From: a virus
Strand: one strand, 5' to 3'
Virus record (IMG/VR): IMGVR_UViG_3300029288_006769
Coordinates: 1-58,366 of that record
Length of the DNA: 58,366 nucleotides
Shown: piece after piece, positions 3,302-47,332 of the stretch
How positions within the stretch are numbered: position 1 is the first letter of the stretch
Layout: each line of letters starts with the position of its first letter
Made by a program: the position numbers and the translations under genes
Notes under the pieces: model-generated
The model's input: only the letters and a program-made list of their open reading frames with translations
Databases searched by the model: none
What the model was told of the DNA's origin: nothing

Positions 3302-3302
3302 A

Positions 3303-4121
3303 ATGGAAACTTTTTCTGATAATGGCCTAATTGTTTCAAGAAAAGACAATGTTACGACATTATCTTCTGAAACCGACTCTAGTTTTACAAAAAAAATCAA
3401 AACAAAAATCTATATGCCTGATGAATATACTCGAGCTTATAATGAAGTCTTGTCAGGAGAAGACGTAATCGTTCTGGGTATGAATGGATTCTCAACTATT
3501 ACTCCAGAACGTTGTTCTGAATGGGGAATACAATTTGGAGCTTATGAAGCTGCTTGTGAATTTCTTCTTTCTCATGCAATTGAAAAATTACAACATTATT
3601 TCAGAGGTATTAGTATTAGACTTGCCAATGGAGCCTCAGATATTGGTGTTGATCTCGCTATAAATAACACTGCTAAAAAATTTGGATTACCATTGCTTGG
3701 ACACAGTTGTCCCAAGTATTTAAAATATGTCAGGGAAGATATTGACATTCCTATATACGTGGCTCAAAATCAAGAAAGATACTCTAATGCTTTCACAGAT
3801 TCATTAGATATTCTTATTACAGCAAATGGTGGTGAAGTTACTTTCAAAGCTGATATTGATGCAGCTTTCAATAAAGCAAAACATGTAATCCCAATTGATA
3901 TATTGAGTAGCATTTCGACTACTGGTGGTCCACCTGCTTTTGACAAAAATGGAAAAGTGCTTGACGCAGTAAAAGCTTTTAACGAAAGAGTACACATTAT
4001 TGCAATGCAAATAAATAATGCAGGAGCAGACCAATGGGAAACTATAGTCGATAACTGCGAAAAAATAATAACATCAATAAGCCGCAAAAAACTATCCGCA
4101 AAAAGAGCATTCAGAATCTAA
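3303..4121 (+). CDS. hypothetical protein, possibly a Rossmann-fold nucleotide-binding (SLOG/DprA-like) protein
   Basis: 272-aa track ORF. The Gly-rich segments LANGASDIGVDLA and ITANGGEV suggest a nucleotide-binding fold; the assignment is weak. Confidence 0.3.
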   Translation: METFSDNGLIVSRKDNVTTLSSETDSSFTKKIKTKIYMPDEYTRAYNEVLSGEDVIVLGMNGFSTITPERCSEWGIQFGAYEAACEFLLSHAIEKLQHYFRGISIRLANGASDIGVDLAINNTAKKFGLPLLGHSCPKYLKYVREDIDIPIYVAQNQERYSNAFTDSLDILITANGGEVTFKADIDAAFNKAKHVIPIDILSSISTTGGPPAFDKNGKVLDAVKAFNERVHIIAMQINNAGADQWETIVDNCEKIITSISRKKLSAKRAFRI

Positions 4122-25047: not shown

Positions 25048-27225
25048 TTATACCAGTTTACCTGCCTGTATTAAGGCATTTTCACGTTCCGTTATGTATT
25101 CTTGTATTGTGCTTGAGTTGCAATCAAGCTCATACCGGCTCAAGTAATTGAGCATAGGGAACGACTTGTACATGGCATCAATCTGTGTTTTCAAGTTGCT
25201 CAACTGGCTTGTTGCCGCATATTTTTTCACCAGCTCATCAGGCACCGTTATTTCAAGCTTTATTGACAAACTCTTTATAAGAGTCATCAAGTCACAAAAG
25301 GTTTTGCTTGCATATTTGTATCTCTGCAACCAGGTTTTGTCGCCCACAATTGTCATTATACTGCTTGCATCGATCAATTGTGTAATTATCGCTGGTGTAA
25401 GTAACTTGCGTTTCTCATCAAGACTCTCAACCAGACCAACCAGCCTTGAACCCCGGTTTTTATTTGCATATATTACATTGAATGCAGGTACCAGTTTCGC
25501 TTTCATTGCAATACGGAGCATCCGATACTCATCATCTTGGTATGAAATGTTCGGTATCTGGAGTATATCATCCACAAGCACCAGAGCATAGTTAGCCGAC
25601 GTAAAAGGCGAACCGCTCTCGCTTGTTATTTGATTTCCATCAACCTTGATATATTGATAAGTGCCCGGTTTGCTGGATGCACCCCGTCTTGCATAGTGGA
25701 TATCCTGGTCAAAATATTGTATCCAGACTTTGAGCGTATCAGGTTGACGGACACTGGGTATTTTCACCGTACCAGCATTAGTTTTGGTCACTTTCATCTT
25801 TTCAACTTGGCTATATAAGGAATATGTTATGCCCAGTTTTGCAAGCGTTTTAATATCCTTGAGATACCGGCGGTAACCCTTGTTGATTGTCCTGCGGTCT
25901 TCTTTATTGAGTTCCCAATACCGCAAGTACTTGGGTTCCGTAGGCCGTATGGCTATATAATCGTTCCCGCCAGCAAAGATCGTGGCATCCTTTAAAGGTA
26001 TATAGGACGGTGTTGCATCGAACAAGAAGACTCTGTCTTTGATAAGTGAAGTACTGATTTCAGTTGTCTTTGTTCTGGTCACTTTCCCGTGGTCATTTGA
26101 CACATCAAAAAACTGGAGCGTCTGGAAATGACTGTCAAGCCGCAGATTCAATGACCGGTTGTCAAAGTTCTTCACCTCTTTCCAGTACGGGTCACTACCT
26201 GATAAATGTGCATCAAGGTACTTGTAAAGCGTCCCTTGTTTTGTGCTCTGATAAAACAAAGCAGCCTGCAACCAGGTAGTGCATTTCTTGAACTCAGTTT
26301 GATAGACAGACTTGACTTCATTTATAAAAGCCACAAAAGCAAGATTGATTGCGCTCTTTGTTTTCTCGTCGTACTGGACATGTTCCCGGTTAGCACTTAT
26401 TGTAAGCACACCAACCGGAAACTTGAATATGACTTGGTGGTCATAAATGGTGTGTCCTGCCCAGTTGATTTGTGAACTTGAAATCGGGTAGAAGATACCG
26501 TCAAGCAACAACCCATATCCCTGACCCAGGAAATCCTGCTTGACTATCATGAATTGGTCGTTGTCAAGCACCGTTTCGATTTTGAGGCGTTCAAGTTTGA
26601 GCCCGAAGTTTTTGTATACCGGGCGCATCGGCCAGAAGATAGTTGCTTTGTAGCATTCCTGCTCAAAGTTAGTACGGTCGCCTGATTTGATCGGGACCAG
26701 TATCGTTGTACCGTTAGCTTCTTGCGTTTCAGCCGTATCAATGCAGTATATTTTGCCCTTGCGGCCCTGTTCGATTGCAGCCACATAAGTATACTTGATA
26801 CCAGCAACGATTGTTTCGATCGTAAAATTGTCTGTGTAACTGAAAGGCGTTTTGGCGCCCAAGCCAAAGCCACCAGTGAAAGTGTCGCTCTCTCTCTTGG
26901 TTGAACTCCCGTAGTTGACAAACACATCAGCCATGCGTTCAGGAGATATACCAGTACCGAAATCCTTAAAGTATATCACCATGTCGCTCATGCTCAAGTG
27001 GCTGTTGGCAATACCAATTTCGATCGGTACGTTGTTTTCAGCTTCACGGTTGGCGTCTCTGGAATTGCTGCTCACTTCCCTGCAAATTGCACCAATTGGG
27101 TTACTGTACAACTTGCTGCGCAGTATTTCGAGTATCAAGCCCATATCAGCTTCTTTGATACCGAAACTGAGCTCTTGGAATGCAGCGCTCGTTGTTACGG
27201 TTGTCGGTTTGCCTGCTAACTTCAT
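25048..27225 (-). CDS. rIIA: rIIA-like protein with an N-terminal GHKL (Bergerat-fold) ATPase domain
   Basis: N-box EVSSNSRDA, G1 box FKDFGTGIS and G2 box TGGFGLGAKTPFSY identify the GHKL domain. The length (725 aa) and position upstream of the rIIB-like gene fit rIIA. The motif follows 27225. Confidence 0.55.
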   Translation of the reverse strand: MKLAGKPTTVTTSAAFQELSFGIKEADMGLILEILRSKLYSNPIGAICREVSSNSRDANREAENNVPIEIGIANSHLSMSDMVIYFKDFGTGISPERMADVFVNYGSSTKRESDTFTGGFGLGAKTPFSYTDNFTIETIVAGIKYTYVAAIEQGRKGKIYCIDTAETQEANGTTILVPIKSGDRTNFEQECYKATIFWPMRPVYKNFGLKLERLKIETVLDNDQFMIVKQDFLGQGYGLLLDGIFYPISSSQINWAGHTIYDHQVIFKFPVGVLTISANREHVQYDEKTKSAINLAFVAFINEVKSVYQTEFKKCTTWLQAALFYQSTKQGTLYKYLDAHLSGSDPYWKEVKNFDNRSLNLRLDSHFQTLQFFDVSNDHGKVTRTKTTEISTSLIKDRVFLFDATPSYIPLKDATIFAGGNDYIAIRPTEPKYLRYWELNKEDRRTINKGYRRYLKDIKTLAKLGITYSLYSQVEKMKVTKTNAGTVKIPSVRQPDTLKVWIQYFDQDIHYARRGASSKPGTYQYIKVDGNQITSESGSPFTSANYALVLVDDILQIPNISYQDDEYRMLRIAMKAKLVPAFNVIYANKNRGSRLVGLVESLDEKRKLLTPAIITQLIDASSIMTIVGDKTWLQRYKYASKTFCDLMTLIKSLSIKLEITVPDELVKKYAATSQLSNLKTQIDAMYKSFPMLNYLSRYELDCNSSTIQEYITERENALIQAGKLV

Positions 27226-28052: not shown

Positions 28053-28931
28053 TTAGTTCGCCAGTGCAACCGCCGTTTTCCAGGCTTCCTCTTTCAGGTA
28101 ACTGGCGCCCAGCACGCTGTTTGCCAGCCGTGTTTCTGCATCCGCACTCCGGTAATGATCAATCCACTCGATATAACCGTTGTACAAGTCGTACAACGTC
28201 CCCTGCCCGGTGCCCTTACCGGCTTCGTAAAGTTCGGTCACCTTGTTTATCAGGTTTTTCTGGCGGGTCCCGCCCTCTGCACCGCTGAAGCATTCCTTGA
28301 TGAATTTGTCAACCATGGCCGCATCGCACACCACCTGTGCAAGCACCTTGCACTGTGCTTCGAACTTGTCGAAGTAAGCGGTGCCCTGGGCAAGTATCCG
28401 CATGGCTTCACCGGCTTTGACTTCGCCGTTTTTGGTATGATGCACTTTGCATTTATTTTCGTTCGCCCAGCCCATCAGGCCGTTCTTGCATACCTGACGC
28501 CAGACGCGGTAGATCGCCGTGAAGGGATAGGAACCGTCGAAGGTGTTGATCAGCTGAATTTTACGGAATGTTTCGTCGCCCTTGCGTATTTCAACCGGGC
28601 TCCCCACCGTGGCTTCCAGGATGAGTTTGCGCCCGCCGTCGATCACGTATGCACTGGTGTACTTGGCGTTGTTCTGCTGACATGCGGTATCGAACCAGGC
28701 ATATGCAAAGGAGTTCTGCAAGGGAGTATACCGATCTCCCACTAGCCCGATGATTGCGTGATTGTCGCTCCGCACCACGGCTTTGTTGTCCGGGATTTTG
28801 ATACCTGCAGGTATGTCGCCGGCACCGAGAGTCTGTATGGGCACCAGTTCGGCGCGCCATTTTGATTCGCTCTTATCGAGCGCTTCTTCTGCGGTTGTAA
28901 CTCCGCCAAGGTCATAAAACGTTGCTTTCAT
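28053..28931 (-). CDS. DUF932 family (phage/plasmid-related) protein
   Basis: LINTFDGSYPFTA matches the NS(H/F)DGS signature region of DUF932/TIGR03299. The length is ~290 aa. A motif variant, CAATATCGTGTG, is upstream. Confidence 0.45.
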   Translation of the reverse strand: MKATFYDLGGVTTAEEALDKSESKWRAELVPIQTLGAGDIPAGIKIPDNKAVVRSDNHAIIGLVGDRYTPLQNSFAYAWFDTACQQNNAKYTSAYVIDGGRKLILEATVGSPVEIRKGDETFRKIQLINTFDGSYPFTAIYRVWRQVCKNGLMGWANENKCKVHHTKNGEVKAGEAMRILAQGTAYFDKFEAQCKVLAQVVCDAAMVDKFIKECFSGAEGGTRQKNLINKVTELYEAGKGTGQGTLYDLYNGYIEWIDHYRSADAETRLANSVLGASYLKEEAWKTAVALAN

Positions 28932-31655: not shown

Positions 31656-32744
31656 TTACTTGCCACATATTTTCTTTATATCAGGTTCGGGCACCCATAT
31701 GCCCTGGTATTTTGTCAACTCTCCATTGCACTTAAATAATAACTCTCCAGCTCCTTTAAGGCGCTCAGCCCCCGGCTCATCAAGTATTATGCGACTATCT
31801 TGTCTGCTCTCTACTCTAAAAGCCACCCTTGCTGGCATGTTAGCCTTTATCAAACCTGTCATTATTTCGACTACCGGGCGCTGTGTTGCCATTACAATAT
31901 GCATACCAGCAGCCCTTGCCAACTGTGCCAACCGAGTTATTTTATCACTTATTGTCTTGTCTTCGCTCTGCATCATCAAGTCAGCCACCTCATCAATTAC
32001 CAAAACTATATATGGTAACTTTGTTTTGGCTACTTGGTTATATGCATCAAGAGATTTAACGTCGTGCCTTGCAAGCAACTCATACCGGCTCTCCATTTCG
32101 TCTACCAAACTACTAAGCAAACCGCTTGCTTGGTCAAGTTTAGTAGCTATAGGTGCATACAAGTGCGGTACGCTCCGGTACAAAGCAAACTCAACCCGTT
32201 TTGGGTCAACCAATGCGAGTTGCACTTGCTCCGGCTGTAATTTATACAACAAACTCAGTATAGCAACGTTCAAGAAAACAGATTTACCCGAGCCAGTAGT
32301 ACCGGCTACCAATAAATGGGGCATACGGCTCAAATCAATTACCTTGTTTGCGCTCAATACTACTGGCAACCGCTCATTTGCTATATGATTAAAGGTTGTT
32401 ATGCCCGTAAAATCAAGTGGAGTGGCATTAACTACAGGAGTGCTAACGTCTGGTGTAGTTGATGCCACTAAATCTGCAGGAAACATTATCAAATACTTGC
32501 TCACTTCAAAATCAATCTCTCCTATATATTTAAGGTCGCGCTCAATTTTATCAAGCTTACTCGCTATCATCCCTACGTTCACACGTTTTATGCGCTCTAC
32601 CTCGTCCTCCACCTCACTATAATGTAACCTGGCCTGCATTTGCCTTATGTCTAACGGGCTCGCGCCGCACCCTACCATGCTACTCAACGTTTTACACAAC
32701 GCCCGGTCAACTTTCAAAGTTTCCAATATCTCCTTAAGATTCAT
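31656..32744 (-). CDS. FtsK/SpoIIIE-family DNA-translocase-like ATPase
   Basis: Walker A LLVAGTTGSGKS, Walker B IVLVIDEVADL, then MHIVMATQRP and NMPARVAFRVESRQDSRIIL. The motif follows 32744. Confidence 0.7.
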   Translation of the reverse strand: MNLKEILETLKVDRALCKTLSSMVGCGASPLDIRQMQARLHYSEVEDEVERIKRVNVGMIASKLDKIERDLKYIGEIDFEVSKYLIMFPADLVASTTPDVSTPVVNATPLDFTGITTFNHIANERLPVVLSANKVIDLSRMPHLLVAGTTGSGKSVFLNVAILSLLYKLQPEQVQLALVDPKRVEFALYRSVPHLYAPIATKLDQASGLLSSLVDEMESRYELLARHDVKSLDAYNQVAKTKLPYIVLVIDEVADLMMQSEDKTISDKITRLAQLARAAGMHIVMATQRPVVEIMTGLIKANMPARVAFRVESRQDSRIILDEPGAERLKGAGELLFKCNGELTKYQGIWVPEPDIKKICGK

Positions 32745-34717: not shown

Positions 34718-35551
34718 ATGTTTGAGCGTAGGGAGTTTCGTGTTGGTTGGTTGCGGGCGTGGTGGGTGTGGTGTAGGGAGGTAGATCGAGTTAGTAGGTG
34801 GAGGGAAGTTGTAGTTATAAAGCGTAGGCTTGAGTGTGAGTTGGTAGAGCGGGCGTTTGTGCGTATGAATAGGGTTGGTTGGACGGCGATGTTGGGTTGT
34901 GATGATTATGACCGGTGTGTTGAGTTGGGCGTGAGTTTGAATGTGGCTGGGGTGCATTTGGTGCGGGATGGTAGTGTGGGGCGTGGTTGTACGTGGTGGG
35001 AGGCGCCGGTGGTGGTTAGGGAAGCAGCTGGTTTGGAGCCCTTGTATGGGCATGTGGGTAGTAGAGCTGTAGGTGTTACAGGTATGCAGGGTGTGACTGG
35101 CGCGGGAGGGTTGTGGGATAACCGTAATAATGACGTTTGGTATGAGCCTACATTACGTGGTACTGGTTTTGGGGATATAGTTGAGCCTGTTGCAATAGGT
35201 GACGTTAGTTATGCTGATTATTTTGGTGGTAGGCCGGTGGAGGTGCAGGTAAGTTTTGACGTGGTTAAGAATAAGCAGTTAGTGGAGCAGGGCCCTAAGG
35301 TTAATAGGCGTATGGGTTGGGTGGTAAATGAGCGTATAGAGCAGCAGCCCAAGCCTGAGCAGCCAGTAATGGGACAGCATATAGAGCAGCCGGGGTGTGT
35401 GCATACAAAGCCCGTTGTAGTGGCACACCCGTTGGTGAGCGACCCGGCTGCAAGGGTTAGGGCCCGTTGGGCTGAGTTATTGCGGTTAGCAGACGCAACA
35501 CATAATGAAAACGAGCGTACTGGTGATGATACCCGTGAGCAGGGTGCATAG
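34718..35551 (+). CDS. hypothetical protein encoded by an extremely C-poor reading frame
   Basis: A ~280-codon open frame in DNA with ~6-10% C. Stop codons need no C, so chance ORFs should be ~9 codons. The likely start is MFERREF; the track ORF's upstream F/V/C-rich 45 aa are probably leader. Confidence 0.45.
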   Translation: MFERREFRVGWLRAWWVWCREVDRVSRWREVVVIKRRLECELVERAFVRMNRVGWTAMLGCDDYDRCVELGVSLNVAGVHLVRDGSVGRGCTWWEAPVVVREAAGLEPLYGHVGSRAVGVTGMQGVTGAGGLWDNRNNDVWYEPTLRGTGFGDIVEPVAIGDVSYADYFGGRPVEVQVSFDVVKNKQLVEQGPKVNRRMGWVVNERIEQQPKPEQPVMGQHIEQPGCVHTKPVVVAHPLVSDPAARVRARWAELLRLADATHNENERTGDDTREQGA

Positions 35552-35907: not shown

Positions 35908-36102
35908 TTGGGAAAGAGTAGTGAACCAATTAGAATGTGGACAGTTTTAAGTGATTGTGCAATATGCCATATTACCGTGCCGGGGGCGCCTTATTTGAGT
36001 ACTGATATTAGGTATACGCTTGACGAATATAAACGCATAATGGAGTATGAGTTACGCCAGCAGAAACGGAAGCGGCGAGCACATAGCACACATTTTAAAT
36101 AA
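35908..36102 (+). CDS. hypothetical small basic protein
   Basis: Track ORF with SD GGGAGCAGG. Confidence 0.35.
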   Translation: MGKSSEPIRMWTVLSDCAICHITVPGAPYLSTDIRYTLDEYKRIMEYELRQQKRKRRAHSTHFK

Positions 36103-36111
36103 GGAGTTTTT

Positions 36112-36267
36112 ATGCAGTTTGGTTGCGGGCATAGCATAGTAAAGTGTAAGGCATGTGGTAAGGTGATAAGCCAGTGCCGGTGTTTGAATGCAAATAAGCC
36201 GGTGGTGTGGAGCGTGTGCGACAAATGTAAGGCTGGTGTTGACCCTAAGCAAGAGGTAAGGGGATGA
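36112..36267 (+). CDS. zinc-ribbon micro-protein (51 aa)
   Basis: MQFGCGHSIVKCKACGK...CDKCKAG with SD AAGGAG. It is not in the ORF track. Confidence 0.35.
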   Translation: MQFGCGHSIVKCKACGKVISQCRCLNANKPVVWSVCDKCKAGVDPKQEVRG

Positions 36268-36270
36268 GCT

Positions 36271-36549
36271 GTGTGCGTGATAACAAGAAAAGCAGATGAC
36301 GTAGTGGTGAGCATTAGTTTGATACCTGGGTTAGCCAGACTGATGAATGATAGATTACAGGGTGGGCAGTATGTGTTGTTTTGCGAAGATTGTGCCCGTA
36401 AAGCTGGATTAGAGAGCAGTTTTGAAAATAGTATTATAGGCGTGATAGCAGGACAGGGCGTGTGTTGTCAGGGTTGTGATAGGGATATAGGTGGTAGAGA
36501 TGTTTATTTGCCCGATAAGCGTTTGAAATTTAAGTGGATAGCAAAATAA
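36271..36549 (+). CDS. small protein, member 1 of the C-terminal KFKW(L/I)A family
   Basis: It ends ...DKRLKFKWIAK. Its non-ATG start is inferred from the track. Confidence 0.45.
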   Translation: MCVITRKADDVVVSISLIPGLARLMNDRLQGGQYVLFCEDCARKAGLESSFENSIIGVIAGQGVCCQGCDRDIGGRDVYLPDKRLKFKWIAK

Positions 36550-37167
36550 ATGTTGAGTGAACGTTGTAAGTATTGTGTGCATAGAGATGATAATGAGAGG
36601 GTTTCACACTGGCAACAAAATTTTAGTTGTATAAAGTGTGCTGGTTTGAGCAGCTTGGTTTTTTTTAAGTTGGATAGAACACAGATTAATAAAACGGTAG
36701 TTGAAAAACCAAGGCCAAGTGCTGCTGGACGGTTCAAGTTTGTGTTTAAGGATATGTATGATGAGAAGAAGCAAGACGATAACCGTAAGCAGTACGTACA
36801 GGATTTAGTAAACAAGTTAGCTGCTCTACATCGTAGCCAGTTGACACGGTTTGTAGGTTTGTTAGAGCGCATAAAAGAGTTTAAGGATGTGGAGCCGTGG
36901 CAGTGGGTGTGGTATGACTGTGATAACCCGATAACATGGCCAGAGCTCGGTGTGCCCGTGCTTGTTATGGTAGGGCAAGCTTATAACCGGTATTATATGG
37001 TTTTAGAGCGCAGGGTGTTAGAGCGTAATGGGAGTGTGGATAAGTGTTGCTGGTTTATGCATGTTGAAAATTGGTTTTTGCGTGACGATATGAACGTGGT
37101 GTGTTGGTGTTTAATAGGCCCACCGCCCGTATTACCTGCACCAGTGCCGACAGCGATACCTATATGA
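36550..37167 (+). CDS. hypothetical protein
   Basis: 205-aa track ORF whose ATG abuts the preceding TAA. Confidence 0.45.
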   Translation: MLSERCKYCVHRDDNERVSHWQQNFSCIKCAGLSSLVFFKLDRTQINKTVVEKPRPSAAGRFKFVFKDMYDEKKQDDNRKQYVQDLVNKLAALHRSQLTRFVGLLERIKEFKDVEPWQWVWYDCDNPITWPELGVPVLVMVGQAYNRYYMVLERRVLERNGSVDKCCWFMHVENWFLRDDMNVVCWCLIGPPPVLPAPVPTAIPI

Positions 37168-37376
37168 ATATACGTAAACTAGCAAGACGTAAACCGGCAA
37201 CAAGAATAGCTGTACCAGAAGAGGTAAAAAGTAAAGTAATACGTGTGCGTGTAACTGAGCAAGAATTTAAGACAATATATAGTGCTGCTAAACAGCGTGG
37301 AGTAACAGTAAGTATGTTGTTGATTGAAACTGTATTGAAAAAAATAAAAAGGGAGTTAAAAAATGGATGTGCTTGA
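37164..37376 (+). CDS. ribbon-helix-helix (CopG/MobC-like) DNA-binding protein
   Basis: KVIRVRVTEQEFKTIYSAAKQRGVTVSMLLIETVL fits the RHH beta-alpha-alpha pattern. An ATGA overlap gives the start at MNIRKLARRK. Confidence 0.45.
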   Translation: MNIRKLARRKPATRIAVPEEVKSKVIRVRVTEQEFKTIYSAAKQRGVTVSMLLIETVLKKIKRELKNGCA

Positions 37377-37521
37377 TGGTATTGAAAAGTTTGCTGACAG
37401 AGTGGGTAAGCTATTTGGGAGTAAGGGGTGGGTGATAAAAGCATTTGTTATGTTTGCGTGCGTGCTTGTGTGTGGCGGGTTGATAGTGATAGGAGCACTT
37501 GCAAAGAAGGATAGCAAATGA
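37363..37521 (+). CDS. 52-aa single-TM membrane micro-protein
   Basis: MDVLDGIEKFADRVGKLFGSKGWVIKAFVMFACVLVCGGLIVIGALAKKDSK. Its ATGA overlaps the next gene. Confidence 0.3.
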   Translation: MDVLDGIEKFADRVGKLFGSKGWVIKAFVMFACVLVCGGLIVIGALAKKDSK

Positions 37522-37733
37522 GTGCTGACAATAGCGAAATGATGAAGGAGCTGATAGAAGCACTTTGTTTTTATGCTGACCCTGATACTTATTTTGCTAT
37601 AGGTTTTTTTCCTGATTTGCCGTGTGGTGAGTTTATTAAAGATTTTGACGAGTCGAAAAAGCCTGGAGCAAGGGCCCGTAGTGTAATAAAAAAATACCAA
37701 GCAGAGTTACAGGGGTTATATGACGATAGATGA
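37518..37733 (+). CDS. hypothetical small protein
   Basis: Track ORF in a coupled series. Confidence 0.4.
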   Translation: MSADNSEMMKELIEALCFYADPDTYFAIGFFPDLPCGEFIKDFDESKKPGARARSVIKKYQAELQGLYDDR

Positions 37734-37989
37734 TGGCGAATATTACAGTGCGATACCGTATGTGCAGCTACGTAGACGCAGGGTAAGGCAGCCTGAAAAG
37801 AAGGAAATACGGCTTGACGTTGATGCATTTAGACAGGAGTTGCTTGATAATATAAAGCAGAACCCAACACAGATAGGTGATAAGCATATTGTAATGTGTT
37901 GGCCTGAGACAGAATCAACACGCCGTGTAAGGTTGAAGAAGTTTTTAGAAAAGCGTTTTTGTGTTGCGCCCTTGTTTAGACGAGGATGA
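37720..37989 (+). CDS. hypothetical small basic protein
   Basis: Track ORF. Confidence 0.4.
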   Translation: MTIDDGEYYSAIPYVQLRRRRVRQPEKKEIRLDVDAFRQELLDNIKQNPTQIGDKHIVMCWPETESTRRVRLKKFLEKRFCVAPLFRRG

Positions 37990-38122
37990 TAGCAATATAC
38001 ATGTGCGCTGGTTGTTTGAAAAGACTGAAAATGGTTTTTTGGTGGCAGGTTTGAGTTTGTGAAAGCAGAGAAAAGGGTACAAAAGCAGCAAATTGAAAAA
38101 AATAAATTGAGGTTTATAGTTA

Positions 38123-38302
38123 ATGAAAACTGAGGAAGTGATAAGTGCTTTGAGCGAGGCTTGTAAGTGTGGTGATAGTGCAGGTTTGCGGCAGTACCAC
38201 CAGCAGACAGCACCGCATATAAGTTATGTTGAGTGGCTTGAACGTAGAGTAGTTATATTGACTGAGTATATAGTTGAGAAAGCATTGAAAGAGCAAAAAT
38301 GA
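38123..38302 (+). CDS. hypothetical small protein (59 aa)
   Basis: MKTEEVISALSEACKCGDSAGL... Its ATGA overlaps the gene at 38299. Confidence 0.3.
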   Translation: MKTEEVISALSEACKCGDSAGLRQYHQQTAPHISYVEWLERRVVILTEYIVEKALKEQK

Positions 38303-38697
38303 CCATAGATGATTTGTGGCGCCCAAAGCCGAATCTGTGTGTGGCAAAAGATCTTGACGTCGAAATGTATTATGAGGACGTAATAAGTTGTATACAGAGT
38401 AACCCAAGGCAGAATGAAAATAAGGACCGTGTGTTGTGCAGGTACCAGAATCGAAATGTTTTGTTGGTTAGGTTTGTTAGAGAGGGCTATAATTATTTTA
38501 TTTTGAAGACATGGGGCTTTAAGGAAGCTTGTTCTGATTTTAGTATCAATTATAAGTTGTTGCATGTGCGTTGGGTGTTAGAGTATAGAGCAAGGCCCGA
38601 TGATATAGGTAGGTTTGAGTTGGTGAGAGAAGATGATGGAGATAGAGTGCAAGTGAAAGAGCAGCCTAAAATGAAGTTTAAGTGGCTGGCAGAATAG
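38299..38697 (+). CDS. small protein, member 2 of the C-terminal KFKW(L/I)A family
   Basis: It ends ...EQPKMKFKWLAE. Confidence 0.45.
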   Translation: MTIDDLWRPKPNLCVAKDLDVEMYYEDVISCIQSNPRQNENKDRVLCRYQNRNVLLVRFVREGYNYFILKTWGFKEACSDFSINYKLLHVRWVLEYRARPDDIGRFELVREDDGDRVQVKEQPKMKFKWLAE

Positions 38698-38709
38698 AAA
38701 GTTTGACAA

Positions 38710-39303
38710 ATGGCACGGCTTGGTGAGCGTAAGAGTATACGGTTAGAGAGCAATGATGGATTGGCGACTATAAGAGCAAACTTGTTAGCTGACCCGCAGC
38801 AGACAAGCCGTAGGAAACTTATGTTTGGGAAAAGCACTGGTATAACCTATGCTAATTTTAGTTTGCCGGTTTGGTTAAAGCGCGGGTATGAGTTGTACCG
38901 GGTGCGTAATAGTATAATCGAGTGGGACAGCACGAGCCGGACGTTTAGGTTAGTGCCCAAGGTGACAATGGATACATTGGTGGCTACGAGCGATGTGACT
39001 AAGAATAAGTTTAAATGGTTAGTTGATGAAACATTGGTTACATTAAAAAACCGCGATTTGGGTGATATAAGTAATGATATCCATCGATACTATGATGTAA
39101 TTACAAAGCCGCCAGCGACAAAGCCTTCAAGTGGTGGACAGTCGATACCTTGGAATTATATAACAACAAGCGAGGTGAATACGAATCCGTGTAATTGTTG
39201 TGGACTTTATGAGGTTTGTGAATCTTGTTGTGATGCTCAGTATCGTTTTGTATTTGACGATAGACCCGAGCCAAAGCCTAAGTTTGCATTTGTGTTTGGG
39301 TGA
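38710..39303 (+). CDS. protein with an internal KNKFKWLVDE and a C-terminal PKPKFAFVFG (family member 3)
   Basis: The motif occurs twice in one protein. Confidence 0.45.
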   Translation: MARLGERKSIRLESNDGLATIRANLLADPQQTSRRKLMFGKSTGITYANFSLPVWLKRGYELYRVRNSIIEWDSTSRTFRLVPKVTMDTLVATSDVTKNKFKWLVDETLVTLKNRDLGDISNDIHRYYDVITKPPATKPSSGGQSIPWNYITTSEVNTNPCNCCGLYEVCESCCDAQYRFVFDDRPEPKPKFAFVFG

Positions 39304-39306
39304 GTT

Positions 39307-39585
39307 ATGTGGACTGTGCGTGTAAATGATGGTTTTTGTACATGGGAGTATGAAATGACAGGTGAACATAGTAGCGTTGCAAATACAAGTATAGCTAATG
39401 TGATTAATGCAATTACTAAGAATACTGGTTTGATAGTTACAAAAGCTACTTTTATTAATGCAATTGAGCCGCAACAAGTGGAGTCGCAGGTAGACAAGCA
39501 GAATAAGCAGAACATAAAGTTTAAAAGTGGAAAAATAGGTGACCCAAAAATAAATGTAAAGTTTAAATTTTTAGCACAGGAGTGA
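39307..39585 (+). CDS. small protein, member 4 of the family
   Basis: It ends NIKFKSGKIGDPKINVKFKFLAQE. Confidence 0.45.
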   Translation: MWTVRVNDGFCTWEYEMTGEHSSVANTSIANVINAITKNTGLIVTKATFINAIEPQQVESQVDKQNKQNIKFKSGKIGDPKINVKFKFLAQE

Positions 39586-39588
39586 AGT

Positions 39589-39900
39589 ATGGTAAAAGAG
39601 ATAGTGGAGAATTTTGCAAAGAGTGGTGTGTCCCAGGCTGCTTTAGAGCGTATACTTGATTTGGGCCAGGGAGATTTGAGCAAAGAAGAGACGCCAGAAA
39701 TGATAGCTCTTATGCGTATTGTGGCGACATATCCTTGGTTGCTTAGTGTAGCTGAGCATCATTATGACGAAAAGTATGCAAATAGAGTCGTGTTGCATGT
39801 GGGTGTAGATGCATTGCTCGATATGCAAGAGCAATTAGCAGGTAGTGAGTGCAAGTGCGAAAAAGAGCAGCCAGCAAGTGAAGATGCAGGTAAGAGCTAA
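39589..39900 (+). CDS. hypothetical acidic protein
   Basis: Track ORF with SD AGGAGTGAAG. Confidence 0.45.
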   Translation: MVKEIVENFAKSGVSQAALERILDLGQGDLSKEETPEMIALMRIVATYPWLLSVAEHHYDEKYANRVVLHVGVDALLDMQEQLAGSECKCEKEQPASEDAGKS

Positions 39901-39928: not shown

Positions 39929-40390
39929 TTGCGCGCAAGCGCGCACAGAGAGGGATTAGTAGTCATGTGGTTGGATACATTTAATGATACTGAAATAAAT
40001 GTAGGCATATGTGAAGCTTGTATGCAGGAGTTTTTCCCTGATGATAAACTTATGGAGAGTGCTGCTTCTTATCTGTGCCCTATATGTATGAGTGTAATTC
40101 AAGTAAGGGGCAAGATGGGCGTGCTTAAGTTGAGGAAAAGCGTATTTGAAGCACTCATGAACACAAAAACTAAACGTTTTATATTGTGCAAGCGTTGTGC
40201 TGACAGCAGGAATTTAACCAGCGAGAATATGACAAGTCCGTTCACAGACAAAAACAAGTATGTATGTCGGTTGTGTGGTAATAAAGAGGGACATGCTGAA
40301 TATATGTTGCCGAATAAAGAAGCAGATTTGTTGTTGAGAAAAAAGAACTCGAAAACAATTGACAAGTTAAAATTTCGTTTTATACAGTGA
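39929..40390 (+). CDS. multi-CxxC zinc-finger protein
   Basis: CEACMQE...CPICMS...CKRCAD...CRLCGN gives four CxxC pairs. Confidence 0.45.
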   Translation: MRASAHREGLVVMWLDTFNDTEINVGICEACMQEFFPDDKLMESAASYLCPICMSVIQVRGKMGVLKLRKSVFEALMNTKTKRFILCKRCADSRNLTSENMTSPFTDKNKYVCRLCGNKEGHAEYMLPNKEADLLLRKKNSKTIDKLKFRFIQ

Positions 40391-40397
40391 GTGTTAA

Positions 40398-40703
40398 ATG
40401 GCAAGAATTTGTGGCAAGCGTGGTAGAGCGATACCGTCAAGTAAGGTTTTTTGTTTCGATTGTGAGGTGAGCATGTTGGAGAAGCAGAAGAGCCCTGATG
40501 AAGAATTGAGAATGAGAGCCAATGAAATAATGTTGGGTTCAAAAGGTTTCATGTTGTTTGCTGTTACTCATTCTGGCGCAATAGAAGCTGTAGGTGATAC
40601 AACTAGACTTACGACAGTAGAACAACTTGGACTTGAGTACTATGTGCAAGAATTTAATCCGATTGAAATTGATGAAGACGAAGACGACCGAGCACCTTTT
40701 TGA
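40398..40703 (+). CDS. zinc-ribbon protein with an acidic tail
   Basis: ICGKRG...CFDCEV and a C-terminal IEIDEDEDD tract. Confidence 0.4.
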   Translation: MARICGKRGRAIPSSKVFCFDCEVSMLEKQKSPDEELRMRANEIMLGSKGFMLFAVTHSGAIEAVGDTTRLTTVEQLGLEYYVQEFNPIEIDEDEDDRAPF

Positions 40704-41812: not shown

Positions 41813-43393
41813 TTATAAAGATAATGAAATTAGTTTGGGCCTGATTTTTGTATCCACCAGGACAATTTTTGTTTGTGCTGTGGCCGGGTATTTTGTGTTT
41901 GTTATTACTTTGAGTGATGCAAGTTCTCCCATGAGTGCACCGTCATAGGTGATTGTTACCAGGTTGCTGGTGTTTGCCTGGAATTCCGAGTTGTTGATTT
42001 GATGAATTGCACCCTGTAATGACGAACCTGCTCTGAAAGCGTAAGTTGCACCACCTGAACCGGCAATATGGATATAACCTTTGAACAAGCCAGGCCAACC
42101 GATTTGCCAGAGTTTCCCGCCGTCTTTTACGTAGAGCAACGTAGTAGAACTCGAGCTTGATTCGTACCAGTTACTGTTGATGCTCAACTCTTTGCTTACT
42201 ATGAAAATTACTTTGCCGGAAAAGATGCCCTGAACATCAGCAGTATAGAATGTTGGTACCGAATTGGAAATGGCAACAACCAGATAACCATTCCAAAGTT
42301 GATCGGCTGGTGTGTTGTCGTATGCATTTTGCAAGTTGGTACCGTTGAGTTTTGTGAAACCTAACGTTGAGAATTCTTTGATTTTATCCGAGGAAATTGT
42401 TGTCATGTTGATTATCGTTGCGTTTTCATTACCGCCTGAGATGTCAACATAGTCACTGATATTGAAGGAGCCTTTGTTTTCAAGAGCAGTGAGATTTTGG
42501 AATTGAGAAGCCATGCAACTACCTGAATGATAGGCTTTGTGGTTTTTCATGTCGACTTTGAAGGTGCCACTGATACTGTTCGTAAAGTACCCTTCTCCAT
42601 TGATATTGAGCGTGTTGAGCAGTTCAATATTTCTTTTGAAACCTGCTTTACCATTGACATCAAGTGAAGAGTTTTGCAATTTTACGGGCGTTTGGAAATA
42701 GGCATTTCCGTTAACAGTGAGTTGCCCGTTGAATTCCGTAGTAGTTCCATTGTCCCCGGTTTTGAGATAGCCGTTGATGATCGAGCCCGAGGCGTTGGAA
42801 TTGAACCGAACGCCACCACCGAAGTAGACATTGCCGTTGACGGTCATTTTCTGGTTGAAGTCGTAGCCGTCTTTCTGGATGTAGATTGCAAAGTCCTGTA
42901 CGGATGGTCGGTCAAATTCGGTACCGTCGAGTTGGTATGTTGCAACGGCTGTTTTTTTCTTGCCTGAAAATTGACCATAGCCGTTTCCTTGAACTATGAT
43001 ATGCGGGATGTTGTAACCGCCGTCACCTAATGCTTCACCGATTCCAAGAATGCAGACTGAAAATTTGGCTGGGTCGGTGACATTTGTGCTCATCGAGATT
43101 TTCTGTTCGCTTGAAGGGTCCGCCGAAAGGAGCCATTTTTTCGATTTTTCGGTCAGGTAATTGTTCATTACCGTTATCGATTCAACGGATTTCTTTTCAA
43201 GTTGGGTTTCGCAGGCTTTAACCGCAGTCGAAGCAGCCTGGTATGCGGAACGTGTTTTCCCTGCGTTTGCAACATTTGTCCTGTCATAACCGACCGTTTT
43301 GAGCATGACAGCGCCGGTAATACCGACGACGCAAACGAGACAAAGGGTGTAGACAATTGCGGCTGAACCGCGTTGATTGTTAAAGTTGAACAT
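41813..43393 (-). CDS. PilX-like type IV pilus minor pilin / assembly protein
   Basis: The N-terminus NNQRGSAAIVYTLCLVCVVGITGAVML resembles the PilX_N consensus (QRG followed by a hydrophobic helix). It is the last gene of the pilin-like operon. Confidence 0.35.
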   Translation of the reverse strand: MFNFNNQRGSAAIVYTLCLVCVVGITGAVMLKTVGYDRTNVANAGKTRSAYQAASTAVKACETQLEKKSVESITVMNNYLTEKSKKWLLSADPSSEQKISMSTNVTDPAKFSVCILGIGEALGDGGYNIPHIIVQGNGYGQFSGKKKTAVATYQLDGTEFDRPSVQDFAIYIQKDGYDFNQKMTVNGNVYFGGGVRFNSNASGSIINGYLKTGDNGTTTEFNGQLTVNGNAYFQTPVKLQNSSLDVNGKAGFKRNIELLNTLNINGEGYFTNSISGTFKVDMKNHKAYHSGSCMASQFQNLTALENKGSFNISDYVDISGGNENATIINMTTISSDKIKEFSTLGFTKLNGTNLQNAYDNTPADQLWNGYLVVAISNSVPTFYTADVQGIFSGKVIFIVSKELSINSNWYESSSSSTTLLYVKDGGKLWQIGWPGLFKGYIHIAGSGGATYAFRAGSSLQGAIHQINNSEFQANTSNLVTITYDGALMGELASLKVITNTKYPATAQTKIVLVDTKIRPKLISLSL

Positions 43394-43404
43394 AGAACCT
43401 CCTT

Positions 43405-44508
43405 TTAAAAAATTCCGTTGTTGAGCGTTTCGATTGTTTCAGTGCGTGTTTTCCATTCGTATTTCCCCGTTCTAGCTATTGATATGTTTCCTATTTCAAA
43501 TGGAGTAGTTTGGGCGTTACCTATATCGTTGGATTTGCTCCTTGTGACCATGGAAATTTTTATTGCGCGTACTGTTTTCTTTTTGGCAACTGATACACTG
43601 TCGAGCCATACAAATTTGCCGTAGTCCTGGCGTCTTACTTCAACACCATTGAGCATAAGTTGCCCTGAACTTTTTGTCCAGTATCGTATGGCAATTTTTC
43701 CTGTAGACGTTGCTTGCGTGTTGATTGTCAGGTGCTGGACGCGATTAACAGGCAGGAATTTTTCCACGCCCTTGTTTACTGTACTGTTGACAATACAACA
43801 TTGTAGCGAATCGAATATTTTGTCAGATACAATATCCAGTGCGACATTAAGGCGTTGGTTGGTGTCATTTGCAAATGATGTGTTGTAATAGATCATCCCT
43901 CTGCTTATACCAGAGAAATCGAACCGAACAGAGGAGCCTACGACTGTTGCTGTTGGTGTCGCACCGGATTCTGAGGCAATCAACCAGTTGCCGGGGATAG
44001 GTATCGGGTTCAAGTCCTGGAGCATCGAATCATTGGCAAATACTCCATATTGAAATTGTAGTCCTTGTACGTTAGCGCAAAATCGCAATTTCTGATTGTT
44101 GAGTTTCCTTATAAGGTTGTTCGAATCCAAATAGAATTCAACCGAGTCGGTCCGGACGTATTCACCGGTTTCTGACAGTTTTGCTTTGTAAATTTTCAGA
44201 GTGTCACTTGGGTCGCCCTGGCGTGCAACAAATGATGATGAATCCGCGATAAATGCGTTCGAAACAAGGTGTTTGTCGAATTTGGTGCCGTTGGGCGTCA
44301 GGTAGAATTTGCAGCCCATGTTGCGTATTTCGCGTACAAGGACGACAAGTGCATCTCTTGCATCGATCTGCATTTTTGTCATTTGCTGGGTTCTGTTGCT
44401 ACTCTTGGTTATGTCGGCATAGGATTTGTGCCAGAGTGAAATGACGATGCCGAAGATTACAATGCAGATCAGCAGTTCGATAATTGAAAGACCTTTTTGG
44501 TTGTTCAT
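43405..44508 (-). CDS. type IV prepilin-like protein (PilW/pseudopilin-like)
   Basis: MNNQKG|LSIIELLICIVIFGIV matches the prepilin peptidase site: G, then E at +5, then a hydrophobic helix. Confidence 0.55.
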   Translation of the reverse strand: MNNQKGLSIIELLICIVIFGIVISLWHKSYADITKSSNRTQQMTKMQIDARDALVVLVREIRNMGCKFYLTPNGTKFDKHLVSNAFIADSSSFVARQGDPSDTLKIYKAKLSETGEYVRTDSVEFYLDSNNLIRKLNNQKLRFCANVQGLQFQYGVFANDSMLQDLNPIPIPGNWLIASESGATPTATVVGSSVRFDFSGISRGMIYYNTSFANDTNQRLNVALDIVSDKIFDSLQCCIVNSTVNKGVEKFLPVNRVQHLTINTQATSTGKIAIRYWTKSSGQLMLNGVEVRRQDYGKFVWLDSVSVAKKKTVRAIKISMVTRSKSNDIGNAQTTPFEIGNISIARTGKYEWKTRTETIETLNNGIF

Positions 44509-44831
44509 TATATCCCCCTTGCAAACTGGGCATTTTTTGTTTTGTTGAAGGCACGCCAGGTGACTGTGATTGTTACTTGACTTACCTTTCCGGTGTCGGT
44601 GATTGTCCAGGTACGGACAAATTTGTAGTTGTCGACAACGGTTGAATCGACTCCGTTTGAGGGAGTGATTTGCACTTTGAGTTCCGCGAATTTGTCTTCA
44701 GCGACCAATTGCGCATTGTCGTTTAACCGCGCATCCTGTGACATCAGCAGAACATTGCGATAGCTCGCTGACATGTTGAGAGATACCATTGCAAGGATGA
44801 ACAATGCAATGATCAAACTGAGCAGCCTCAT
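44508..44831 (-). CDS. membrane-anchored PilV-like protein (first gene of the operon)
   Basis: Internal start MRLLSLIIALFILAMVSL with SD GGAGGCACC. The phage promoter core GAGATATCGTGCGC lies at 44878..44891. Confidence 0.35.
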   Translation of the reverse strand: MRLLSLIIALFILAMVSLNMSASYRNVLLMSQDARLNDNAQLVAEDKFAELKVQITPSNGVDSTVVDNYKFVRTWTITDTGKVSQVTITVTWRAFNKTKNAQFARGI

Positions 44832-44892
44832 GGTGCCTCCTACGTTAATTTTTGGTGAAGTTTTTTTCCTACAATGAGAGATATCGTGCGCC
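44832..44892 (-). promoter_or_regulatory. phage promoter/SD element driving the pilin-like operon
   Basis: Minus strand reads GCGCACGATATCTCTCATTGTAGG...GGAGGCACC-ATG. Confidence 0.5.
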
Positions 44893-44933
44893 CGGGTGTA
44901 ATCTGCCAACTATATTACATAGAACAGTGAGAA

Positions 44934-45227
44934 CTATATAGGTATAAATTCATCCTTATAACCTAATAGCATTCCTTCAGGGAAGCCTATGTTGCGGAGT
45001 CTTGCTAAAACAAAAGCAAACTGATGTTGTTCTGGTAACTCTGGAATTTCATATTCCAAAAGTTTTTCTATATAAACACGAGCTTCTTTGGGAGAGCATG
45101 TTTTGGGAAATAAAAACTTGAATTTTTTGTAATACTTTATTTTTTCGACTTTTTTTCTTTTTTCAAGGGTATCTTTGAATAATAGATATGAAATAAAAAA
45201 ACAAATTAATGCTAGTGCAATAGACAT
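44934..45227 (-). CDS. small membrane protein
   Basis: N-terminal TM segment IALALICFFISYLLF. Confidence 0.35.
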   Translation of the reverse strand: MSIALALICFFISYLLFKDTLEKRKKVEKIKYYKKFKFLFPKTCSPKEARVYIEKLLEYEIPELPEQHQFAFVLARLRNIGFPEGMLLGYKDEFIPI

Positions 45228-45237
45228 AGTTTACTCG

Positions 45238-45717
45238 TTAAACGATTAGTTCCCAGACAGCATCTTTTTTAGTTCCTGTTTTTTTGACTATTTTTCTTGA
45301 CTTCATTGTCCATAAAGTTTGTTGTACTTGCAAATATGCTATATGTATCTTATTGTCAGGGAAAAGTTTTTTTAAGCGAAGTTGGTTAACAATTTCGGTT
45401 ACTGCACCGTGTTTTATTTCTTGCAAAGTTTCACGTGTTACTTGTGACCAGTTTACTGACTTACAAGTCCAATCTGATTCTGATTCTATACCATTAAATA
45501 CTTCTTTATCTGGTATAAACATGATACTGTGCTCAAAAGAATCAATAACCCCAGTGTGTACGCAGCTTTCTAAGAAGTGAACAAATGCAAGCGTATGACG
45601 GTCGAAAGGCTTAGTTCTATGAATTTCTTGCAGAAACCCAATTCGGGACTTGGTTTTTATTACGTAGCACTTTGAAACACTTGTACTTTTGTCTTCAACA
45701 ATGACTGTTTCGCTCAT
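45238..45717 (-). CDS. hypothetical protein
   Basis: Track ORF. Confidence 0.4.
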   Translation of the reverse strand: MSETVIVEDKSTSVSKCYVIKTKSRIGFLQEIHRTKPFDRHTLAFVHFLESCVHTGVIDSFEHSIMFIPDKEVFNGIESESDWTCKSVNWSQVTRETLQEIKHGAVTEIVNQLRLKKLFPDNKIHIAYLQVQQTLWTMKSRKIVKKTGTKKDAVWELIV

Positions 45718-46060
45718 TTTCCCATTCCTGTTTGTTTCTTTCGACTTGTGCTGTCAGAGCCACGTCGAATTGTTCTCCTGTGCAAATTTGCAAAGCAACA
45801 TATTTTTCCTTGTAATGCCACCAGCCTTCAACTTTGTATTCCCAGATCATTTGAAGAGCTTTTGGGACATCAGCTTCTTTGAGAACTGGGTAGACATTTG
45901 AACGTGCTACTTCGAAACCTGCATTGCGTAGGAAGCAGTCCTGGATTCCCATTTGAGACAGGTCGCCAGAGAGATAGAACTTGAATTCACTTGGAGCCCG
46001 TTCGTTTGAAACAGCCGATGAAAGCAGACTGACAACGCCGGGAGCAATTGAAAATTGCAT
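45695..46060 (-). CDS. hypothetical protein
   Basis: Track ORF with SD AGGAGG. Confidence 0.4.
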   Translation of the reverse strand: MQFSIAPGVVSLLSSAVSNERAPSEFKFYLSGDLSQMGIQDCFLRNAGFEVARSNVYPVLKEADVPKALQMIWEYKVEGWWHYKEKYVALQICTGEQFDVALTAQVERNKQEWENERNSHC

Positions 46061-46149
46061 ATAACCTCCTTAGAACAAGGCTGGAAATGTTGAGTGCTTT
46101 AGCTCGCTGACCGTCTAGCATTCTTCTTTTCAAGGACCAATAGGACACA

Positions 46150-46503
46150 TTAAGGATAGACAATGAAGTACCTATCCAGTTGTTCAAGTTTTTTTACGTA
46201 TTCCAGAGAAAACTCTACAAATTTTAATGGTCTGTATTTTCCTGTTTCAATGTCATTTGCTGTTATGACGGAAAATTCGACAGGATTGTGACCTTTGTCA
46301 TCTACCCACCATTTCTTTGAAAAAATCTCGTATTGATCCTGAGGTATGGCTTTTCGCCTTATGCCCTGGAATATTTTTGAAAGACCTTCATACACCAAAA
46401 TCAGACCTGGAATCAAGAGCCAAAGCAAAAAAACATCGTAATGATATGTGAACAGACCAGTACAAACAATAAGTACACCGACAACAAATCTGTATAAGTT
46501 CAT
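46150..46503 (-). CDS. two-TM membrane protein
   Basis: VVGVLIVCTGLFTYHYDVFLLWLLIPGLILVY. Confidence 0.4.
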   Translation of the reverse strand: MNLYRFVVGVLIVCTGLFTYHYDVFLLWLLIPGLILVYEGLSKIFQGIRRKAIPQDQYEIFSKKWWVDDKGHNPVEFSVITANDIETGKYRPLKFVEFSLEYVKKLEQLDRYFIVYP

Positions 46504-46943
46504 TTTGACTCCATAACTTCATCAAGGAATTCGTGTGCAAACCGAGCAGGTGTTTTTGTACCATCCCACAGAACAGTCACAAGCGGGAAATCTTTTATTC
46601 TTTTTACGGTACCTTTCCTGTCAGGTCTCGAATTTCTGGCAACAAAGATTCCCAAGCAACTGAGCTTGACACGGCTCCCTATTGCAAAGGGCAATTTGGG
46701 ATTTTGTATGTCTTCGATTTTTTCGATGATTTCAAGGTGCTCTGCTGTCCATTTGATAATTTGACCATTCGCACGGATATAGAGACAATTGTTGTCGGAG
46801 CCACCGTATTCCGCAACAGTGCCTGTAAAATCAAGGCTAGACAGGGTAGACTTGACAAGGTCCCCGATTCTTTTCCCGTAATATCGAGTCCTTGCTTCAT
46901 TGTCAAAAGGCTTTAGCATCGTGTTTCCTTTCAAGCGCACCAA
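46500..46943 (-). CDS. hypothetical protein
   Basis: Track ORF coupled to the downstream gene. Confidence 0.4.
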   Translation of the reverse strand: MVRLKGNTMLKPFDNEARTRYYGKRIGDLVKSTLSSLDFTGTVAEYGGSDNNCLYIRANGQIIKWTAEHLEIIEKIEDIQNPKLPFAIGSRVKLSCLGIFVARNSRPDRKGTVKRIKDFPLVTVLWDGTKTPARFAHEFLDEVMESK

Positions 46944-47332
46944 GCACTGTAATGCTCTTCTTCAGGTTGAAAAATAACTTTTCTCGTACTTGCAAGGGTA
47001 AAATAAGTTTGACTACCAAACTGAGTTCGTACTCCGCTTATTTTAAGAGCGAAGAAAGCATCAAACACTTTATGGTCGCCGACAAATCTTAAGAGACAAC
47101 CACAAATAGTCCCTTGCTGGACAAAACCGGCTTCTTGAAGTTTCGTTTGTAAGAATTCCCAATTCTCATAATGCTCTTCAAAGCATCTAAAACTTCCTCG
47201 AACACATCGATAATCGCCTGACTTGCAATTAGCGATTTTTGCACATATGCTCGGATCAGTAAATAATTTTTTACGGTAGTCTTTGAAAGAGTTGTTCATC
47301 CTATTAAAACTCCCAGTGCAATACCAGCACAA
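46931..47332 (-). CDS. hypothetical protein
   Basis: Track ORF. Confidence 0.35.
   Translation of the reverse strand: MCWYCTGSFNRMNNSFKDYRKKLFTDPSICAKIANCKSGDYRCVRGSFRCFEEHYENWEFLQTKLQEAGFVQQGTICGCLLRFVGDHKVFDAFFALKISGVRTQFGSQTYFTLASTRKVIFQPEEEHYSAWCA

Follow-up and report, generated by a model that had tools for sequence, protein, structure and literature searches.

A shared basic-aromatic peptide at the ends of small proteins on different scaffolds, confined to one huge-phage lineage

Why do several small neighbouring proteins of a virus, built on different scaffolds, end in nearly the same short peptide? This question is raised by a 58,366-nucleotide stretch of viral DNA (IMG/VR record IMGVR_UViG_3300029288_006769, positions 1 to 58,366), which was analysed over its full length and which we call the window. 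At about 35.9-41.2 kb, its + strand carries a block of 17 tightly packed small open reading frames (ORFs), labelled g1 to g17. Seven neighbouring small genes of this block carry the peptide K-x-K-F-K-W/F-L/I-A, located at the very end of the protein in six of them. A codon-by-codon alignment of the copies gives the tail consensus K-x-K-(F/L)-(K/R)-(W/F)-(L/I/V)-(A/V), followed by 0-3 residues and the stop codon. We conclude that this motif is real, that it is selected as a peptide, that it is wider than first noticed, and that it is confined to one huge-phage lineage.

All copies lie on the + strand. The g4 tail, K-R-L-K-F-K-W-I-A-K (36517..36546), ends at a TAA that the ATG of g5 follows without a gap, and the g11 tail, K-M-K-F-K-W-L-A-E (38668..38694), ends at a TAG. 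These two tails are identical at 21 of 25 nt, which would fit either a small 3' cassette exchange or the same peptide encoded under strong codon bias. The g13 protein terminates in KINVKFKFLAQE (39547..39582), that is, in KFKFLAQE, and contains a half copy, I-K-F-K, 11 codons upstream (39514-39525). Two copies are found in g12, i.e., an internal one, K-N-K-F-K-W-L-V-D-E (39001..39030), which closes a domain that we assign below to family A, and a degenerate C-terminal one, K-P-K-F-A-F-V-F-G (39274..39300), preceded by YRFVFDD. The initial annotation, made from the sequence alone, had quoted the peptides of these four proteins (for g12, NKFKWLVDE and the terminal PKPKFAFVFG*), and each of them is found where it had been placed. 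Its list was incomplete, as it had missed two copies: the g15 tail, K-L-K-F-R-F-I-Q (...DKLKFRFIQ*, 40364..40387, then TGA), whose basic position is encoded by CGT, and the remnant K-N-K-L-R-F-I-V-N-E-N, at the C-terminus of the pseudogene g9 in its frame 0 (38098..38130). A last copy is doubtful, namely the internal R-F-K-F-V-F-K-D of g5 (36730..36753), directly after the N-terminal zinc ribbon of this protein (36550-37167, +); its DNA and, by blastp, its peptide are closer to the family A core strand GGRFEFV than to the tail.

To what extent could such a repetition arise by chance? The last 10 residues of the 17 block proteins were scored against 20,000 within-protein shuffles. The pattern K-[FL]-[KR]-[FW]-[ILV] is present in five of the 17 proteins, against a mean of 0.002 in the shuffles (maximum 1), and a looser pattern in six proteins, against 0.005 expected. 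The pattern was chosen post hoc, with the data already seen; nonetheless, the excess is of several orders of magnitude, and a chance origin of the enrichment is excluded. Outside the block, we found no C-terminal copy of the motif in a six-frame scan of the rest of the 58-kb window, nor in ~370 kb of unrelated loci with FtsK relatives, nor in 41 kb of LR756500.1, the closest deposited huge phage.

Judged by alignment, the motif is carried by at least three different protein scaffolds. Family A consists of tandem paralogues, i.e., the pseudogene g9 (37720..38133; a repaired product of 136 aa, obtained by three-frame translation), the intact protein g11 (38299..38697; 132 aa), and the N-terminal half of g12 (about residues 1-108 of 197 aa; 38710..39303), the C-terminal half of which is Cys-rich. 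It also includes two homologues from other samples or loci, P0003 and P0004, described below. Both g9 and g11 start with MTIDD, and their Smith-Waterman z of 13 stays at 12.7 after removal of the last 12 residues; the N-terminal half of g12 joins the family through a profile match to its orthologue P0003 (E 1e-19). The conserved blocks of the family are IRLD/E, NPxQ, GY(N/E)(Y/L) (including GYNYF), VRW/IEW (including HVRW), RF(E/R)LV (including GRFELV), and the tail. In g9, the reading passes from frame 0 to frame +1 at a T5 run near 37956-37960, and frame 0 is restored 80 nt later at a T6 run (38035-38040); this frameshifted sequence is the same in every independent assembly compared (L003, L040, L001/L002). 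Family B consists of g4 (36271..36549; 92 aa), a zinc ribbon protein (CxxC...CxxC) with the tail at its end, and of the C-terminal half of g15 (39965..40390; 141 aa), which contains two zinc ribbons. All four Cys, LMN, and LPxK are aligned between them at 30% identity, with a 15-residue insertion in g15 between LPNK and the tail; once the tails are removed, their Smith-Waterman z is only 1.0, which is not significant. The scaffold of g13 (39307..39585; 92 aa, or 76 aa if translation starts at an internal Met) has no relation to families A and B; g13 and the Cys-rich half of g12 match nothing, and no Pfam or PHROG family was found above threshold for any tail-bearing protein.

The comparison between groups is informative about the tail itself. 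Indeed, the z of g4 against g11 falls from 4.1 with the tails to -1.3 without the last 12 residues; since this similarity vanishes on trimming, the tail alone is common to the different groups. Thus, the description of the carriers as unrelated or otherwise dissimilar, proposed at first, stands between groups but not inside them, given the paralogy of g9, g11, and the N-terminal half of g12 and the common architecture of g4 and g15. Within family A, and probably within family B, these alignments indicate that the tail is inherited by duplication, not independently gained.

Is the motif retained in more distant relatives? A family A profile, run on the 1.84 billion representatives of some 15 billion proteins, returned four clusters only, i.e., g11, g9, and two new ones. 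The latter, P0003 and P0004, are the sole non-self relatives found, their matches span about 110 positions, and both have kept the motif (NKFRWLVDE and TKFEWIFN*, respectively), as expected from selection on the peptide. P0003, from another sample, is 74% identical in nt to the N-terminal half of g12, of which it is an orthologue, and its copy reads KNKFRWLVDE; between both sequences, dN/dS is 0.15 with a dS of about 1.25. P0004 (profile match E 7e-19) is an intact orthologue of g9, of 116 aa, located at 3195-3545 of locus L035 in a 27-40% GC context and ending in QTKFEWIFN*. The gene just upstream of it (L035 2825-3151) ends in ...WDSKFEKIFGKNIY, loosely like TKFEWIFN, and may, from this likeness, be one more degenerate copy, at a second locus. 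When 5.8 billion proteins were searched by word index with g11, with g4 and g15, and with g13 and the C-terminal half of g12, self clusters alone were returned. Against 50,697 phage records, the block, g12, and g15 had no match by blastn or tblastn, and none was found in an IMG/VR scan. In the 28 genomes with FtsK relatives, neither the block nor the motif is present, and LR756500.1 (38% aa identity by rIIA) has only the rII genes in common with the window and no motif copy.

What is under selection at these gene ends, the peptide or the nucleotides beneath it? AAG, AAA, AGG, and CGT all occur at the basic position, TGG and TTT at the aromatic one, and ATA, CTG, TTA, and GTG at the aliphatic one. 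A reading at the nucleotide level would see in the motif an AU-rich unstructured stretch (AAGUUUAAR...), located 10-30 nt before the next start, that enhances initiation or translational coupling, the peptide being a by-product. In agreement with this, six of the eight copies lie directly before the start of the next gene (spacers of 0-12 nt). Moreover, the Lys, Phe, and Ile codons are the most AU-rich ones in an otherwise G-rich strand, three of the six junctions fold less well than their shuffles (z about +1.3 to +1.5), and the ten motif codons compared between g12 and P0003 present zero synonymous differences. However, residues 66-108 as a whole are poor in such differences, so that this run of identical codons is wider than the motif and not specific to it; the conservation at synonymous sites that could have pointed to a nucleotide element is therefore not motif-specific. 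The internal copies of g12 and P0003 are kept with no start nearby. The basic residue is conserved through CGT, CGG, and AGG, and the aromatic one through TGG/TTT, i.e., through two to three base changes, and the K to R change from g12 to P0003 goes from AAA to CGT inside the motif itself, while the conserved TGG and GCA are not AU-rich. A convergent gene lies downstream of P0004, whose tail therefore cannot serve a downstream start and is retained all the same. Eight tail-less genes of the block also abut downstream starts, and their C-termini are unlike the motif. The six junction RNAs present no common fold (z from -1.5 to +1.5), and Rfam finds nothing at the junctions, its only match in the window being the tRNA at 1278-1350. 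We thus hold the nucleotide-level reading to be very improbable; the comparison favours a constraint on the peptide rather than on RNA or DNA, as was proposed at the outset from the codon differences alone.

A peptide could also act before it leaves the ribosome. In this case, the nascent tail would slow termination or release and so tune re-initiation on the downstream gene. The tail does stand just ahead of the stop codon, with three residues after the aromatic position in four of the seven C-terminal copies, and the tail-bearing genes never overlap the next start, as most other block genes do, by 4-14 nt. On the other hand, the distance to the stop is not fixed (2 to 5 residues), internal copies exist, P0004 has no downstream gene to regulate, and the tail is unlike the arrest peptides that are generally known. 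This possibility is, in our opinion, the most remote of those considered here.

The reading frames of the block call for one more remark. Ten of the 17 genes (35935-39900) share one frame, and the spacers between g11, g12, g13, and g14, which are consecutive and in frame, measure 12, 3, and 3 nt, with different stop codons. As seven of the eight motif copies are in one frame, we considered a split polyprotein and rejected it: ten in-frame genes out of 17 are only marginally unusual, and the intervening stop codons differ.

If the peptide is the selected unit, is it a part of the folded domain or an appendage to it? AlphaFold2, run on P0004 with the 7-row family alignment, gave a mean predicted local distance difference test score (pLDDT) of 76 and a predicted template modelling score of 0.67. 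Residues 5-100 are confident and their core ends in a hairpin, the final strand of which is the GGKFEL segment (residues 89-97). Residues 101-116 (KEKIIQKQTKFEWIFN), i.e., the linker and the tail, have a pLDDT below 50. In this model, the tail is thus placed outside the confident domain core. With three rows, g11 gave no usable model (pLDDT 37.6), and fold searches gave no significant match. Counted on the alignment from the RFxLV strand to the tail, the hydrophilic linker has between 16 and 22 residues in family A; in family B, it has 0 or 15 extra residues (g4 against g15).

These data bear directly on a structural alternative, in which the tail would be the last beta-strand of a C-terminal hairpin, paired with the RFxLV-type strand. 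It would complete the fold or form homo- or hetero-oligomers, and it would have been spread by duplication and module shuffling. Such a role would suit the full-length paralogy of g9, g11, and the N-terminal half of g12, the common architecture of g4 and g15, the internal position of the motif in g12, and the alternating residue pattern, appropriate for an amphipathic sheet strand. It would also account for the tail-like strands found upstream in several carriers (RFELV, RFEFV, TFRLV, YRFVFDD, and IKFK). On the contrary, the modelled domain of P0004 already closes at GGKFEL and leaves the linker and the tail unplaced, the spacing from strand to tail varies by 6 residues in family A and by 15 in family B, and the same tail is found on scaffolds with no detectable similarity, such as g13 or the trimmed pair g4 and g11. 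We consider this alternative, the main rival of the reading proposed below, unlikely.

We propose instead that the tail may tether different small effector domains to one common partner, a reading to which, from the sequences, we give an even chance. It is suggested by the enrichment of the motif, by the tail being the only element common between groups, by a chemistry kept despite codon changes, by the retention of the motif in P0003 and P0004, by the low-pLDDT linker and tail, by the variable length of this linker, and by a precedent in phage T4 discussed below. Basic residues alternate with aromatic or aliphatic ones, so that the tail, at the end of the variable hydrophilic linker, would be an amphipathic strand; F, W/F, and A/V would occupy one of its faces and K, K/R, and L/I the opposite one. 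In the most likely mode of docking, it would insert as an added strand in a groove of a hub protein. The domains tethered in this way would be zinc ribbons, a lineage-specific alpha/beta domain, and others. The candidate targets, none of them ranked above the others, are a host or phage protein hub, a protease or its adaptor (in which case the tail would be a degron), an anionic membrane, for which the tail would be a basic-aromatic anchor, or nucleic acid. Within families, tandem duplication would have spread the module; between them, 3'-end exchange or fusion/fission would have done so. The binding, its partner, and the early expression of the block are what we infer here.

Several observations weigh against docking. 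A low pLDDT is weak evidence of disorder, the more so as the P0004 alignment has just seven rows and the three-row model of g11 failed. In g12 and its orthologue, the motif is internal, with at least 38 residues after it, and a strictly C-terminal signal would fail there. P0004 has an E at the central basic position, which implies that this charge can be dispensed with. Inside families A and B, an inherited fold could account for the tail, which would then simply be its best-conserved strand. Finally, the family is limited to one phage lineage, which makes its evolutionary sampling thin.

Variants of the locus give some idea of how such modules move. The block is in flux, as seen from an indel that splits g4, an indel in g12, the fusion or fission of g12, and the decay of g9. 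In L040, a near-identical variant from another sample, a 152-nt insertion (L040 4747-5180; window 36331) splits g4 into ORFs of 59 and 68 aa, the latter retaining the ribbon and the tail, and a 12-nt insertion in g12 (L040 7341-7946; window 39210) duplicates EVCD in the Cys-rich half. In L038, a relative with 74% nt identity, each half of g12 has its own ORF, the two overlapping by ATGA (339-940), and the upstream neighbour is not g11-like; hence, either g12 of the window is a fusion or L038 contains a split version. This relative retains ...FEFDDRPEVKPK up to its contig end, in the region of the C-terminal copy of g12. The tails are identical in the close variants (L001-L005 and L040), which thus provide no substitution data.

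In which genome did this block evolve? On the - strand, the window contains a full-length rIIA homologue (25048-27225; phrog_612, E 1e-69) and an rIIB homologue (23076-24161), which confirms the phage setting assumed in the initial annotation. It also carries a DUF932 protein (28053-28931, -) and a 362-aa FtsK/SpoIIIE ATPase (31656-32744, -), while g6 of the block (37164-37376, +) encodes a NikA-like ribbon-helix-helix protein; phage-type and mobilisation-type genes thus stand together in an unusual mix. The nearest FtsK relatives are 40-53% identical and nearly all belong to Bacillota genomes, a phage-type homing endonuclease is found in the flanks, the best rIIA match is LR756500.1, a 462-kb uncultured phage, and the g15 cluster is on record on a 424,144-bp contig. 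A conjugative or mobile element, suggested by the FtsK/SpoIIIE, DUF932, and NikA-like matches, was considered and rejected: rIIA/rIIB, the homing endonuclease, and the 424-kb contig favour a huge phage. The g15 protein (P0005) is found in NCBI under a metagenome-assembled genome named 'Candidatus Nanoarchaeia archaeon' (GCA_028717785.1). This bin label is probably wrong and the contig a misbinned huge bacteriophage, because of the bacterial-type prepilin leader of the adjacent pilin genes, the Shine-Dalgarno sequences at the junctions, the rII genes, and the 424-kb contig.

Early expression of the block is plausible by analogy with the rII-adjacent regions of T4, from the size of the genes, their packing, and the neighbouring rII genes; a scan for promoters and terminators gave nothing above background. 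Several other features surround the block. A type IV pilin-like gene cluster adjoins it (41813-47332, -); among its products are a PilW-like protein (43405-44508), which has a bacterial prepilin leader, and a protein of 526 aa whose N-terminus is pilin-like. The region 12000-47000 forms an island of 44-50% GC between flanks of 33-37%, and the GC skew changes sign at about 34.45 kb, where the two gene blocks diverge. C makes up only 12.9% of the + strand block and 9.4% of its third codon positions, and G reaches 47% in positions 34751-35000. An origin, strongly asymmetric transcription, or the acquisition of a module could explain this pattern. The tRNA mentioned above (1278-1350, -; Rfam tRNA, 60.8 bits) reads TAG through its CTA anticodon; it is labelled Pyl by ARAGORN and is likely a phage amber-suppressor tRNA. 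The stop-codon recoding suggested by this tRNA was rejected, as reading TAG as a sense codon gave no clear ORF lengthening in the window.

What would a shared tail mean for the biology of such phages? The small ORFans of huge phages number in the hundreds and offer no way into their function. One peptide found across seven ORFans on different scaffolds offers an experimental handle to function and, if the docking reading is true, a shared hub would assign a site of action to the whole gene block at once. It would also mean that phage effectors gain targets via duplication and the swap of a tiny 3' module, as the indel, fusion/fission, and pseudogene variants illustrate. This value is limited by the phage being uncultured and by the family being confined to its lineage.

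How does the tail compare with known docking peptides? The C-terminal acidic tips of SSB (...DDDIPF) are hub-docking tails, in which one tail serves many partners. They resemble the present tails in the concept of recruitment by a conserved end peptide on a disordered linker, but their charge is opposite, and here many proteins have one tail. The block itself contains an end reminiscent of these tips: g16 (40398-40703, +), a protein with an N-terminal zinc ribbon, ends in ...IEIDEDEDDRAPF* (...DEDEDDRAPF), acidic and with Pro-Phe last. From its composition, it would be a second, different candidate docking tail. The adaptor and degron tails of AAA+ proteases include the SspB XB peptide LRVVK, which docks as an added strand, RRKKAI of MuA, and the ...LAA of ssrA. 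Like ours, they are short C-terminal peptides on a flexible linker, with a mix of basic and aliphatic residues. However, the sequences match only in general character, and the internal copy of g12 does not fit a strict C-terminal degron.

Sliding clamps offer closer points of comparison. The AlkB-homologue-2 PCNA-interacting motif (APIM) has the consensus [KR]-[FYW]-[LIVA]-[LIVA]-[KR]. Inspected against this consensus, which, as a degenerate five-residue motif, is easily matched by chance, g4 agrees at five of five positions (KWIAK). With the same reservation on chance matches, g11 (KWLAE), the internal copy of g12 (KWLVD), P0003 (RWLVD), g13 (KFLAQ), and g9 (RFIVN) agree at four of five, the final basic residue being absent. 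The motif is not matched by g15, the C-terminal copy of g12, or P0004 (EWIFN). RWLVK peptides bind the E. coli beta-clamp, inhibit growth, and are toxic if overexpressed (PMC7261172). Unlike APIM, the tails have a conserved upstream half, K-x-K-F, which is no part of it; since the full match is seen in g4 only and K-x-K-F lies outside, we treat APIM as a hypothesis and not as a membership. As for the bacterial beta-clamp motif (QL[SD]LF / QLxLxL), Q-L-x-L-F is found in none of the tails. A bolder form of the docking reading can be built on this half-likeness: a lineage-specific addressing code, in which a basic-aromatic peptide with an APIM-like second half would make zinc-ribbon and other ORFan effectors converge on one essential hub. 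This hub could be a sliding clamp, of the host or of the phage, or else a phage-built compartment or a membrane site, and new effectors would be recruited by gaining a 3' cassette of about 25 nt. We see it as rather improbable.

The closest documented parallel comes from phage T4, where gp43, gp33, and gp55 end in clamp-binding epitopes that can be interchanged, on linkers that are divergent and of unequal length (PMC2988020). As in our block, a highly similar short end peptide is carried by unrelated phage proteins whose linkers diverge. Docking on one hub, the gp45 clamp, is documented in T4, whereas for the present tails it is a proposal. Furthermore, the T4 epitopes are hydrophobic and acidic, whereas our tails are aromatic and basic, and the T4 carriers are polymerase and transcription factors, whereas the carriers described here are more numerous, are small ORFans, and lie in a window where no clamp gene was seen. 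Since the shared terminus and the variable linkers are found in both cases and the acidic composition is not, we regard the tail as an analogue of the T4-type epitope, not as a member of that class.

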